64,000 bases of DNA from Octopus vulgaris (taxonomy: Eukaryota). Below, in pieces: positions 1-64,000 of this stretch. The position numbers were made by a program. Within the stretch, counting starts at the first letter, position 1. Each line of letters opens with the position of its first letter. Location: positions 80,786,001 through 80,850,000 of the forward strand of contig OX597820.1 in the NCBI GenBank assembly GCA_951406725.2. Direction: 5' to 3'.

Positions 1-3000
1 ATTTACAGGACAAATTGTCGAAAGCAATTTTAAGTAAAGATAAAGAGAGCTTAAGCAAATCTATTGACGAGTGTGAAGATACTGGTTACCTTGAATTGAG
101 CCCCTACCTGAAGAATGCAAGAGATATATTAGAAAGTCTTGGTGGAGGCCGTGGAGGTTAGCATTATATATACATATTTAATTGTCACAGTACAAATATT
201 TTGAAACCAAGAAATTTTTTCTTTGCCAGAATGAGGATGAACTTTTATTTGAATTTGTCACTCGATTTCCTTTAACAATTTTAAAAGAAGCAGCCAACAA
301 ACACAGTCAAAATATTCATTTCTCAAGTTCACGGAACAATTGTACTGATTTCTATGAAATTCGAGTTTTTAGCACAGGATTGAAGTTTATACCTTGTACT
401 AATTGTAGTTTATATCTTGTTATACTAATAATGGATGTATTTCAATCAGATATTTTCTTACTTTTCTAGCACTTTGAGTATATAATTCTTACCCTGTCCG
501 TCCAGGTCCATGCATCTTTTAAGGCGTTTTTGTAACTGTGACCACGATATTTATATTTAAATGTTATTATTAAAGTATAAAACAATATAAATGAGCATGT
601 CTACAAACGATTAATTGGCATATAATAAGTAATGTAGCATGCAATATATCTCAGTAATTACCCAAAACTTTAAAGAAATCATTCCGTTCATTGTTCCGCT
701 TCTATTATCAGGCCTTAAGACACCGGAAATATTGCGTCAAAAACTTGAAAGTGCCAGGAATCAGAATGACAAACAACATTTGGAAAAAGTATTAAATGAG
801 TGCATTGCTGCTGGTATGCCAGAACTGGACAATGATATTGAGTTAGCTAGGAATGATCTCGATTACATAGGATATGATGTTAGAGGTTAGATCTGAAATT
901 ACTATTGTCAAATATAAATATGAAATTATGCAAATATGTGTATACATATATATGTACGTACACACACACAAACATGCTCGTATACCATTTTAATCAATAA
1001 TAAATTGTTTTTGTTGTAAAACTTTGTGTGTATGCATAATGTGTGTGTGCATGTGTGTGTGTGTTTGTGTGTGTGTGTGTGTGTGTGTGTGTGTGTGTGC
1101 GTGTGTATGTGTAGATGGGAAGGTTGCAAAAGGTATGACAGCTTCAATAGGGGACAAGAATCGTTGACATGCCGGCACTGACTGGTCCTTATTAGTTTCG
1201 GATGTCACTTGGACAATGGTGGTTTTCAGTGAAGTTAATGTATAGGGAAGAAGTCAATTAATCTCCCTTTCAACAACCCTATGAACATTGTAGTCCATAG
1301 GATATGAATCTGGCGAGTTTGGAGGCCACAAGTTTAGTGATACATAATCGTAAAAATTGCCTTACATCTATTCTTGGGTTACATGTGCTTTGTGAGAAGG
1401 TGATGGGTCTTAATGAATAGTATATGGCTTTGCATTTTGCACTTCATTCAACTAGGGCTTAACAACTGTATCCAGCATCTCAACATTTTCAGAAGCATTA
1501 AATCTAACATCTTTACTACAATCCCAGAGTCAGTGAAAGACTTGGGGATCAGTATGTGAAATGACGTATCATTTCATATGCAAGATGGCAGCAAAGTGCA
1601 GAAAACTGGCAGGATGGATACTGATGTCCTTCAGGACAAGAGACCAAGAAACTGTTTTGACCCTGTGGAGAACCTTTGTTCTCAGCCGCCTAGACCACTG
1701 TTCCCAGTTATGGTCACCACATAGTGCCAAATTAACAGTGGAGCTTGAAGCAGTCGAACGCCGCTACACTAAAAAGATTGAAACAGCGCAGCGGATGAGC
1801 TATAAAGATAGGCTGAGAAAACTACAGCTTTACTCCCTGGAGCGAAGGCGTGAGGGATATGCAATAATATACGTGACGATCTGGCAGAAACGTTAGCACG
1901 CCGGATGAAATGCTTATCGGTCGACTTTGCCTTTCATTCTTTCGGGGTCGATAAATTAAGTACCAGTTGCGTACTGGGCTCGATCTAATCGACTGGCCAC
2001 CCTCACCAAAAATTTCGGGCCTAGAGTAGAAAAGATTATTTACAGGTGTTATGCAATATTTGTTGATCTACTAATATAATATGCTTATAAGGTTTTTCCT
2101 TATATAACGGATATTACCATTCATGAAAAACGTGTAAGATGACTTAACCAAATAAGTTATGAACAAAATCCCATATTTTGTGTGAGTGTGTATGTGTATG
2201 TGTGCGTGTGTATGTATGTATGTGTGTATGTGTGTGTGTGTTGTATGTGTGTGTGTGTGTGTGTGTGTGCGTGTGTACTTCTCTACGCAATAAAACCATT
2301 ATTCTTAAAATTTCCAAGTAAGTCATATGAGACATAAGCCTAATGTTTCTGTTTACTAGGAATAAAAACCCCTGAAACTTTACGCGATGAAATAAAATCT
2401 GCGGTTAGACTGAAAGATAAAAATGCTCTGAAAAGGCTCATTGATGAATCAGAGAAATGTGCATTTCCAGAAGTTGCAGGTGATCTACGAAGAGCTAGAG
2501 ATACACTGCAAAGTCTCGGAGGAGGTCGTGGAGGTTTGATATTGAAATATTTAGCTGCATGAATTAACATGAGTATCTCATTATATGCGCTTCTAAATAG
2601 TTGCCAAAAAATTGGGTTGCTTTCTTTAAGTAGACTCATTGTTTTGGCAATAAAAATTTGTTTCTATGTATATTGTGTATGAAATAGGCTCTGGTATTCA
2701 CTATTCCATCAAATAATGTAGGTTGTCATAAACTATTGTAGAACTGTGTGGAAATAGTTTTGCGGGGGTTAATACGGTTTCTGTTTCAGTCATTTTCTTC
2801 TTTTCAAAGCACTGAAAACAGAAATATGCAGACAGTGAAATCTTAAGTGATAAGTATTTGTGAAAATGCAGTATAAACTTAATGATTTAAGCGTTTTGCA
2901 TATCATAGGATATGTACAAAATAGTGGTTGAATCGCGAACTGAGCGTGAAAAGCAATATACTCAAAGGTTTAGTTATTCTTTGTTAAGTGATATTAGGGA

Positions 3001-63000: not shown

Positions 63001-64000
63001 ATATAGAATCTAGCACGTTGGAAAGCTTTTATAATGATATCAACATTACAATGCATGGAAGAGTGCAGAAGCCTGCGTCTGTGAGGGCAATATAAATAAC
63101 TGCATAATATATGTATTCAGAAAAACACACACAAATACACACACTGAAAAATAGGCATACACACACACACAAACACACATACACGCACACCACATCCACA
63201 TTTTATACTTACAATGTAAGCATATATCACTTCCAACACATTCTATAATCTGCAATATATTCGCTTTCAATACATTCTATATTTACGATGTGAGGACATG
63301 TCAGCAGCACTTAATGGAACAGAGACATCATCGTCCTGTAATTCCCGCTTTGGCTTCATCTTCCCATTAGTATAAAAACCTTTGTCAAAGTGATGGTTTT
63401 GTGGAAAAATATTCACGTGTAACTTTTCGTTGAACACACCAATTCTATCCGTGTATGCATGTGTGAATGTGTTTGTGTGTGAAGTGTGTTTAATCTTATT
63501 TATGTTTGTTTGGATTTGATTGTGAGTTTCCGTGCGTTTCGGTGTGTGTTTCTGCCTGCTTCTATTTGTTTGTGTATGATCCTGTATGTGAGATTATTGG
63601 CAAACGGATGTTTTTGCTTGTGTTTTTACTCTTTGGTATTGTGTGCATGACATCACTAAAGACATATACAGAAATTATTTGCAAGTTTGTTTATTGCGTT
63701 GTTAAAATACTCTGTCAGGGACGAAGACGCCCGAATCACTTCGCCGAAAACTAAAGTCTGCTATGAAGCAGGGAGATAAAGATACACTGGACAAAGTAAT
63801 TCACGAATGCATCGCTGCTGGAATGCCAGAATTAGACGTAGACATAAGCGTCGCTCGAGACGTATTGAAAGACGTTAAAATTTCACCTCCAACAGGTACA
63901 TAGCATTCACTTTGCTTTCAAACGCCTATTGTACTAATAGAATATTATACATTCTTCTATTATGATATCGAAACATCATTTGAAAGCGCCTCTTTTATGA

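Follow-up and report, generated by a model that had tools for sequence, protein, structure and literature searches.

Results

An array of 57 repeat-coding exons in Octopus vulgaris

The 64,000-nucleotide stretch of Octopus vulgaris DNA analyzed here (the window; GenBank assembly GCA_951406725.2, contig OX597820.1, positions 80,786,001 to 80,850,000 of the forward strand) holds an array of 57 homologous repeat-coding exons, in sequence that is free of N and AT-rich (G+C 0.28–0.41). The repeat is already visible in the plus-strand stop-to-stop open reading frames (ORFs) of the window. A first profile hidden Markov model (HMM), built from 17 seed copies, was run against the stop-to-stop pieces of all six frames (1,563 pieces, each 25 aa or longer). 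Of its 69 matches, 57 had E < 1e-8, all on the plus strand, and the other 12 had E values of 2.4 or more. A second HMM drew on 51 distinct exon peptides; against 3,358 pieces of 12 aa or longer, it recovered the same 57 strong matches. Beyond these it found no match better than i-E 2.5 on either strand within the window, which therefore holds no decayed or antisense repeat copies. Both models thus reproduced the 57 plus-strand exons of the original prediction, and the array is real. The count itself needs one amendment: all 57 copies are present, but exons 53 to 57 are exact copies of exons 49 to 52 and 49, leaving 52 distinct exon sequences. The exons, bounded by the HMM match and the splice sites, are as follows; types A and B are the two module types, and P0001, P0005 and P0156 are public proteins, taken up below.

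1–156 (+), exon 1, type A, cut by the window start; 86% identical to P0001 818–868
712–885 (+), exon 2, type B, 174 nt; collinear with P0001
2360–2533 (+), exon 3, type A, 174 nt; collinear with P0001
3477–3650 (+), exon 4, type B, 174 nt; collinear with P0001
4564–4737 (+), exon 5, type A, 174 nt; collinear with P0001
5701–5871 (+), exon 6, type B, 171 nt; junction residue D common to P0001
7560–7733 (+), exon 7, type A, 174 nt; collinear with P0001; the exon folded by AlphaFold2
9751–9924 (+), exon 8, type B, 174 nt; collinear with P0001
10467–10640 (+), exon 9, type A, 174 nt; collinear with P0001
11477–11650 (+), exon 10, type B, 174 nt; collinear with P0001
11864–12037 (+), exon 11, type A, 174 nt; collinear with P0001
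12319–12492 (+), exon 12, type B, 174 nt; collinear with P0001
14367–14540 (+), exon 13, type A, 174 nt; collinear with P0001
14937–15110 (+), exon 14, type B, 174 nt; collinear with P0001
15618–15791 (+), exon 15, type A, 174 nt; collinear with P0001
16912–17085 (+), exon 16, type A, 174 nt; collinear with P0001; alternation break
17582–17755 (+), exon 17, type B, 174 nt
18092–18265 (+), exon 18, type A, 174 nt
19313–19486 (+), exon 19, type B, 174 nt; 95% identical to fragment P0082
20812–20970 (+), exon 20, type A, 159 nt; homologous reading frame from 20797
21291–21464 (+), exon 21, type B, 174 nt
23151–23324 (+), exon 22, type A, 174 nt
23811–23984 (+), exon 23, type B, 174 nt
24489–24662 (+), exon 24, type A, 174 nt
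25046–25219 (+), exon 25, type B, 174 nt
26571–26744 (+), exon 26, type A, 174 nt
26978–27151 (+), exon 27, type B, 174 nt
27383–27556 (+), exon 28, type A, 174 nt
27925–28098 (+), exon 29, type B, 174 nt
28461–28634 (+), exon 30, type A, 174 nt
28945–29130 (+), exon 31, type B, 186 nt
30636–30806 (+), exon 32, type A, 171 nt
31220–31393 (+), exon 33, type B, 174 nt; followed by the longest intron (8,371 nt)
39765–39944 (+), exon 34, type A, 180 nt
40224–40397 (+), exon 35, type B, 174 nt
42074–42250 (+), exon 36, type A, 177 nt
43437–43613 (+), exon 37, type B, 177 nt
46699–46872 (+), exon 38, type A, 174 nt
47399–47572 (+), exon 39, type B, 174 nt
48604–48777 (+), exon 40, type A, 174 nt
49301–49474 (+), exon 41, type B, 174 nt
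52886–53059 (+), exon 42, type A, 174 nt
53390–53563 (+), exon 43, type B, 174 nt
54033–54206 (+), exon 44, type A, 174 nt
54679–54852 (+), exon 45, type B, 174 nt; 100% identical to part of P0005
55534–55707 (+), exon 46, type A, 174 nt; 95% identical to P0005 and joined there to exon 45
56022–56195 (+), exon 47, type B, 174 nt
57264–57437 (+), exon 48, type A, 174 nt
59249–59425 (+), exon 49, type B, 177 nt; first of the four-exon tandem unit; 100% identical to P0156
59627–59800 (+), exon 50, type A, 174 nt; 100% identical to P0156
60113–60286 (+), exon 51, type B, 174 nt; 100% identical to P0156
60482–60655 (+), exon 52, type A, 174 nt; 100% identical to P0156
61484–61660 (+), exon 53, exact copy of exon 49; 100% identical to P0156
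61862–62035 (+), exon 54, exact copy of exon 50; 100% identical to P0156
62348–62521 (+), exon 55, exact copy of exon 51; 100% identical to P0156
62717–62890 (+), exon 56, exact copy of exon 52; 100% identical to P0156
63719–63895 (+), exon 57, exact copy of exon 49; 100% identical to P0156
59020–64000 (+), tandem duplication with a 2,235-bp period and four exons per unit; ~100% identity including introns; runs off the window end

Fifty-six copies are complete exons and one is truncated by the window start (1–156). Exon lengths are 174 nt (46 exons), 177 nt (five), 171 nt (two) and 180, 186 and 159 nt (one each), exon 1 being cut; the median intron is 524 nt long, the shortest 195 and the longest 8,371. 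No stop codon occurs in any of the 57 exons and both ends are in phase 1 throughout, in line with the frame-preserving, stop-free exons foreseen. By comparison, 1,219 of 20,000 random 57-codon plus-strand intronic windows have an open frame (6.1%), a share raised by long TG/CA-type microsatellites in the introns (~990–1250, 2070–2400, 9370–9620 and others), which read as HTHT or CVCV ORFs. Summed, the exons amount to 9,927 nt or 3,309 codons; one mRNA of all 57 would encode a protein of more than 3,300 aa.

Splice sites and phase

Each copy is flanked by an in-phase AG and GT, and the exon starts 11 nt before a conserved Pro codon in 54 of the 56 complete copies (17 nt before it in exon 34). 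In exon 20, the usual acceptor is lost (TT for AG, 20797–20811) and an in-phase AG lies 15 nt downstream, after a pyrimidine tract; its use gives an exon of 159 nt with five residues fewer and the remainder intact, and with it the predicted tally of 46 exons of exactly 174 nt agrees. Every intron is inserted after the first base of a Gly codon, that is, in phase 1, so any combination of exons stays in frame. Among the distinct exons, the donor reads AG/GT in 51 of 52 (A at −2 in 51, G at −1 in all 52), with T at +3 in 43 and the full AG/GTTAG in 35 (e.g., 883–890 and 7731–7738). The donors are thus uniform, yet unlike the general consensus, which has a purine at +3. With a GTTAG donor, the split Gly codon is followed at once by a TAG in frame, and an unspliced intron would therefore terminate the protein cleanly behind a module; this donor is either selected or inherited from the founder unit. 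The acceptor AG is at its usual place in 50 of 51 distinct exons, and pyrimidine content at −18 to −4 is 0.67 versus 0.50 across introns. Exon joins in public proteins match the predicted junctions, including that of the 171-nt exon 6, whose junction residue D is also found in P0001.

Selection on the exons

Paralogous exons were compared as 946 pairs of 44 distinct 174-nt exons, with exon 20 taken at its homologous 174-nt frame and with exons 53 to 57 and exons of other lengths left out. Mean nucleotide identity was 0.52 in exons versus 0.30 in introns 21 to 120 nt upstream and 0.31 in introns 11 to 110 nt downstream, and exon identity by codon position was 0.54, 0.63 and 0.385. Intron identity between paralogues is at the random level, as expected if introns have diverged beyond recognition, which had been proposed. 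Mean pN was 0.41 versus a saturated mean pS of 0.73, and pN was below pS in 99.8% of the pairs. A second sample consisted of 15 short ORF fragments of related genomes with at least 80% identity to the window, other fragments being dropped. In these, 728 of 805 exon residues were identical (90.4%) versus 236 of 309 residues in flanks that read through into introns (76.4%; Fisher p = 4e-9), the flank value being an upper bound because ungapped alignments end where similarity ends. Both comparisons support the proposal of purifying selection on the exons.

Alternation of two module types and tandem duplication

Modules fall into two types by the residue that follows a conserved Glu-Cys (E-C) pair. 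Type A has the pattern ...ECExAxYPEL..DLRKARDxLESLGGGRG, and type B the pattern ...NECVAAGxPELDxDIQxAR..L. The types alternate at 55 of 56 junctions, and 0 of 200,000 label shuffles did as well. The sole break lies at exons 15 and 16 (15618–17085), which are both type A; P0001 has the same break, which is therefore old, and a B exon may have been lost there. Mean identity was 0.46 for A–A, 0.44 for B–B and 0.37 for A–B pairs, with no clear period beyond two and an offset of four marginally highest (0.466). Alternation points to the A–B pair as the duplicating unit and, more recently, to a four-exon block. The near-identical 2,235-bp units at the end of the window may have arisen in a very recent burst, or else the assembly may not give their number reliably. 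The array sets old copies with saturated synonymous sites side by side with very recent duplication. Two possible explanations of the strict order are that neighboring modules could pair or that misfolding between like neighbors could be avoided. Complex prediction of the A-type exon 7 with the B-type exon 8, run without alignments and without controls, gave a score of 0.00, a result that bears on such pairing in neither direction.

Predicted module structure

With a 51-exon alignment, AlphaFold2 modeled exon 7 with helices at residues 4–17, 20–33 and 36–53 (pLDDT 87.1, pTM 0.66) and lowest confidence at the Gly-rich end after helix 3, a picture that matches the three helices and Gly-rich linker anticipated for each repeat. 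Multi-repeat statements rest on public proteins. P0006, a natural three-repeat fragment modeled as a single sequence, showed helical modules with linker pLDDT below 50 and pTM 0.34; no fixed geometry between modules is thus predicted, with modest confidence. Nearly invariant profile columns are L7, A14, I27, E37-L38, A45-R46 and L49. The type A consensus ends in ...ESLGGGRG(G), with a nearly invariant G54 and the hinge motif GGGRGG. Invariant and nearly invariant residues sit in the helices, the hinge contributing only G54 of type A.

A Cys follows Glu (E-C, module residue 30) in most modules of both types, about one Cys per 58 residues of a presumably cytosolic protein.

The exon model had no match at E ≤ 0.001 among 94 Foldseek matches in the PDB (best E 2.6), and a PDB sequence search with a single exon gave no match. 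In a profile search of the PDB, all matches were to helical proteins designed de novo (best E 0.0016) and were set aside. A Pfam scan at E ≤ 1 covered 8 of the 57 exon peptides. Its matches, among them Phage_Mu_Gp27, RHH_6 and B12-binding_2, all fell below the curated cut-off and were rejected, and the Ig, fibronectin, nebulin and spectrin models were not listed for these peptides. This result and the best Foldseek E value sit well with the earlier view that the array is not homologous to titin or nebulin. The repeat looks like an unnamed eukaryotic three-helix unit of about 58 aa that is absent from the Pfam copy used. Literature searches, which did not extend to subscription journals or supplementary files, turned up no paper on this locus, its LOC numbers or its repeat.

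Octopod relatives and their mapping to the window

The exon profile and follow-up searches matched P0001 (1,738 aa), P0002 (XP_014780069.1, Octopus bimaculoides LOC106876157), P0003 (A0A0L8GL38_OCTBM), P0004 (Argonauta hians "LOC115214248 isoform X1") and P0005 (A0A0L8FP52_OCTBM), and a search with P0001 added P0156 (Octopus sinensis "uncharacterized protein LOC115214251," 2,023 aa). Exons 1 to 16 are collinear with P0001 818–1737 at 58-aa spacing and 86 to 100% identity, none being skipped; P0001 has 14 more repeats before residue 818 and is open at both ends. Exons 49 to 57 are 100% identical to P0156, which carries about eight such four-exon units, so the array continues downstream of the window. 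The P0156 model starts partway through a repeat and its last repeat is open; the exon-49 type is skipped in some of its units. P0005 joins exons 45 and 46 (100% and 95% identity). The longest consecutive runs in public proteins are 30 repeats (P0001) and about 35 (P0156). Neither P0156 nor any of P0002 to P0005 covers exons 17 to 44 or 47 to 48 at orthologue level, the P0002, P0003 and P0004 models covering other parts of the array.

Pfam matches of P0156 to Metal_resist, B12-binding_2 and Macro were above cut-off and were rejected as summed weak matches over identical repeats; such labels also stand among the precomputed domains of P0156. PF24398, precomputed for P0002, was absent from our own Pfam scan of P0002 at E ≤ 0.01.

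Homology to the repeats of KY/hillarin-like proteins

In the Argonauta protein P0004, a Transglut_core domain (residues 94–202) is followed by three Ig-like_KY stretches and a charged coil; behind these come about 13 repeats and then a tail of some 300 aa. Its Transglut_core match (PF01841) has E 2.3e-5 and 25.1 bits against a cut-off of 23; P0110 reaches 27.2 bits and P0155 20.4 bits, the latter below cut-off. Ig-like_KY (PF23265) matches P0004 in three stretches with E 2.3e-64 and is also found in P0110, P0144 and P0155. P0110 matches the head of P0004 at 90% identity and breaks off within repeat 1. P0002 begins inside the repeat array, and its last repeats and tail are orthologous to P0004. 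P0155 shares with P0004 the head (28% identity, E 1e-46), repeats and tail. Matched repeat stretches number three in P0155 and six in P0144, both animal-type KY-like proteins.

A profile of 51 window exons matched P0004 with E 3.8e-187 and, against 1.84 billion proteins, P0110 with E 7e-14, P0144 with 4e-11 and P0155 with 4e-10. P0144 and P0155 scored 55 to 58 bits, whereas none of 100 local shuffles of each exceeded 5.8 bits. By these scores, the window repeat is homologous to the repeats behind the Ig-like_KY domains of KY-like family members. A resemblance to KY/hillarin/LTD-1-like proteins, offered as a hypothesis in the original prediction, is thereby borne out: the repeat lies C-terminal to Transglut_core and Ig-like_KY in P0004 and three others.

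The conserved C-terminal region of these proteins (P0004 ~1460–1650, the P0002 tail and the C termini of P0155 and P0144) has the pattern ...HD..(I/M).A..(I/V)LGE... W... and, we presume, resembles a dynein stalk motif; the P0004 tail matched no Pfam family at E ≤ 10. The transglutaminase-like cores of the octopod proteins and of P0144 and P0155 read G-S/W-Y by eye at a place where we would assume a G-x-C motif, which we take as a lead only.

Published work places KY at the Z-disc with filamin C and Drosophila hillarin at the cleavage furrow with septin, and gives LTD-1 an actin-like pattern (PMC6078408, PMC3718969). Loss of KY leads to myopathy in mouse and man (PMC6078408). An octopus skin-mucus proteome lists a "kyphoscoliosis peptidase," which may or may not come from this gene (PMC11431876).

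The repeat in other eukaryotic proteins

Among 1.84 billion representatives, the repeat profile matched 244 proteins at E ≤ 1e-3, most of them single-exon ORF calls. P0025 carries a myosin head and 18 matched repeat stretches, P0136 combines the repeat with EF-hands, and P0012, P0045 and P0117 are repeat-only. These protist-like proteins have profile E values from 1e-25 to 6e-12 and 61 to 105 bits versus at most 7.6 bits for shuffled or reversed sequences. As a group, the long relatives score 55 to 105 bits, and 100 local shuffles of each plus the reversed sequences at most 7.7. No Pfam family covered the repeat parts of P0012, P0025, P0045 and P0117 at E ≤ 1e-4. The pattern common to window and protist-like repeats is L..A....D...L..AI.E.E.AG.....L..AR..L. 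We call these proteins "protist-like" on account of their composition and because the nearest ESM Atlas clusters ("hypothetical protein," 0.89–0.90) carry a haptophyte label; the Atlas gave no usable match among named clusters. The repeat looks like an old eukaryotic module. As it lies behind the myosin motor of P0025, it could be a tail module, so far undescribed, in one class of myosins.

Other features of the window

No other gene was found in the window. Pfam scanning of 20 long intronic ORFs gave mariner-type relics and one sub-threshold WLS-like match only. Relics of the mariner/Mos1 type and other ORFs lie in introns:

8832–9110 (−), HTH_48 mariner relic, E 3e-6
8441–8743 (−), ORF, transposase-like by eye, no Pfam match
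1537–1896 (+), 119-aa ORF in intron 2, which we take to resemble the end of a retrotransposon reverse transcriptase, no Pfam match

A further mariner-type relic lies at 29615–30100 (−), where a Transposase_1 match of E 8e-5 was below cut-off. The 8,371-nt intron at 31394–39764 contains no repeat copy, and two of its ORFs had no Pfam match. Rfam at the gathering threshold gave no match in the window.

Discussion

A probable expanded middle of a KY/hillarin-like protein

The window is an internal stretch of a real protein-coding gene made of cassette-like exons, each in phase 1 at both ends and each encoding one module of about 58 residues. Each module is predicted to form a small three-helix bundle ending in a Gly-rich hinge (GGGRGG in type A). 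In the reading that we favor, and regard as probable, the array forms the expanded middle of the octopod orthologue of a KY/hillarin-like protein. The layout would run from an N-terminal transglutaminase-like core through three Ig-like_KY domains, a charged coil and a variable number of modules to a conserved C-terminal tail; the Argonauta model has about 13 modules, and Octopus probably has some 100. We infer the linkage of the array to head and tail exons from repeat homology, from the piecewise models and from the neighboring NCBI gene numbers. With less certainty, the array may act as a long flexible bead string that sets the distance between head and tail in a cytoskeleton-associated scaffold, spacer or spring. 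The scaffold or ruler role of the original prediction is a putative one. The length of the array could change in frame, either by exon skipping or by tandem duplication such as the 2,235-bp burst.

Several points weigh against this assignment. Within the window, no Transglut_core, Ig-like_KY or tail exon was found among 20 intronic ORFs and 8 of the 57 exon peptides scanned. The best match of any window exon to P0002, P0003 or P0004 is at 69%, short of orthologue level, so that the link to the KY-like gene rests on repeat homology. The same repeat stands beside a myosin head and EF-hands in protist-like proteins, and by itself is thus no proof of a KY-like context. Nearness of the numbers LOC115214248 and LOC115214251 is a weak inference for the link, and NCBI annotates LOC115214251 as a separate repeat-only protein. 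The P0001 and P0156 models may not rest on transcripts, and no relative of 3,043 to 5,000 aa was found, which is weak evidence. The suggested cytoskeletal function is carried over from what is known of the family.

A bolder form of the proposal, which we put forward tentatively and think rather doubtful, is that all ~100 exons (57 here, at least 14 upstream per P0001 and roughly 26 to 29 downstream per P0156) are joined in one mRNA. The protein would exceed 6,000 aa, its KY-like head and tail would lie hundreds of nanometers apart, and it would represent a new class of giant elastic or ruler protein in the muscle or neurons of cephalopods, its modules coming from an ancient eukaryotic repeat also present in protist myosin tails.

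Alternative explanations

The alternative that survives best, a possible one to which we give limited credence, is a cassette system of variable length in which each mRNA uses a subset of exons and no single giant protein is made; it is compatible with the favored gene identity. It would account for the phase symmetry of all 56 complete exons, for donors that are uniform but off the general consensus at +3, for the skipping of the exon-49 type in some units of P0156, for the "isoform X1" label and mere ~13 repeats of the Argonauta protein, and for the lack of any model above 3,042 aa among those found. In contrast, P0001 and P0156 join 30 and about 35 consecutive repeats, with none of exons 1 to 16 skipped, and all 48 diverged exons are intact and constrained, which fits regular use.

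The array or parts of it, such as LOC115214251, might instead be a separate gene derived from the repeats of the KY-like gene, with a start and an end of its own and lacking a transglutaminase-like head. NCBI models LOC115214251 in this way, as a repeat-only protein of 2,023 aa, and repeat-only proteins exist elsewhere (P0012, P0045 and P0117). This explanation appears unlikely, for P0156 and P0001 start and end within open repeats and both look like pieces; no first, last or other-kind exon was found in the window; and P0110 ends and P0002 begins inside the array, as split models of one gene would.

A multivalent RGG-type scaffold, in which the GGGRGG hinges would be the functional part (through Arg methylation, RNA binding or condensates) and the helices mere spacers, takes its appeal from the type A consensus end and its nearly invariant G54. 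RGG boxes are clusters of two or three RGG, but each hinge here has one and B modules lack the motif, conservation lies in the helices while the hinge has the lowest model confidence, and no RNA-binding family was matched among the exon peptides scanned with Pfam; we consider this very improbable.

Finally, a dead repeat or assembly artifact, with copies that are not expressed exons, has in its favor that the last 4.9 kb consist of ~100% identical 2,235-bp units that are hard to assemble and whose copy number may be wrong, but it is barely credible for the array and contradicted for exons 1 to 48 by the open frame of 57 of 57 copies versus 6.1% of random intronic windows, by the codon-position pattern and pN < pS, which argue for coding, by splice sites that are conserved while introns are randomized, by orthologous exons better conserved than their flanks, and by public gene models that use the predicted junctions.

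Implications

The gene family is already known, as are parts of the locus in the form of "uncharacterized" public annotation. Three points appear to be new: that these pieces fit into a KY-like architecture, how large the array is and how it is ordered, and a repeat family without a name. Placing the expanded-middle reading on fragmentary "uncharacterized" octopus models gives them a KY/hillarin-like family context and suggests one very large gene split by automatic annotation. The work also defines a three-helix repeat that has no name in Pfam, the PDB or the papers searched and that is found in animals and in protist-like proteins, including a myosin. As an extreme and clean case of one exon per module, the locus may be useful for understanding how giant repeat proteins grow and how ~100 near-identical sites are spliced. 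If the protein is indeed a long cytoskeletal tether, it could help to explain what the KY family does at the molecular level, which is not known.

Comparison with known systems

The octopod models P0156, P0002, P0003, P0005 and P0004 share the repeat, the splice phase and the A and B types with the window, as would the same gene or its orthologues. In contrast to the window, where the array is much longer than in any model, these models are all automatic and "uncharacterized," and each holds only a piece.

With KY, hillarin and LTD-1, the repeat-bearing octopod and other animal proteins share an N-terminal Transglut_core and Ig-like_KY. The portions available of PMC6078408 and PMC3718969, however, mention no helical repeat array for characterized members. 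In the octopus gene, the repeat is the dominant part: the window alone has 57 exons of it, and no head domain was seen there. Vertebrate KY, with about 560 aa, is not known to have such repeats, and LTD-1 has a LIM domain.

The protist-like proteins carry the common repeat pattern but differ in their partner domains, and are without the conserved Cys, the PEL motif and the Gly hinge.

Titin and nebulin are built from serial modules encoded by symmetric exons and arranged in super-repeats. The likeness of the window array to these and to spectrin is one of analogy: many small modules in series that fold independently, symmetric exons, a super-repeat (here the A–B pair) and diverged neighbors (A–B identity 0.37). 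No sequence or fold relation accompanies it, judging from the 8 of 57 exon peptides scanned with Pfam and from the Foldseek search of the PDB, the unit here being a predicted three-helix module of 58 residues joined by Gly hinges.

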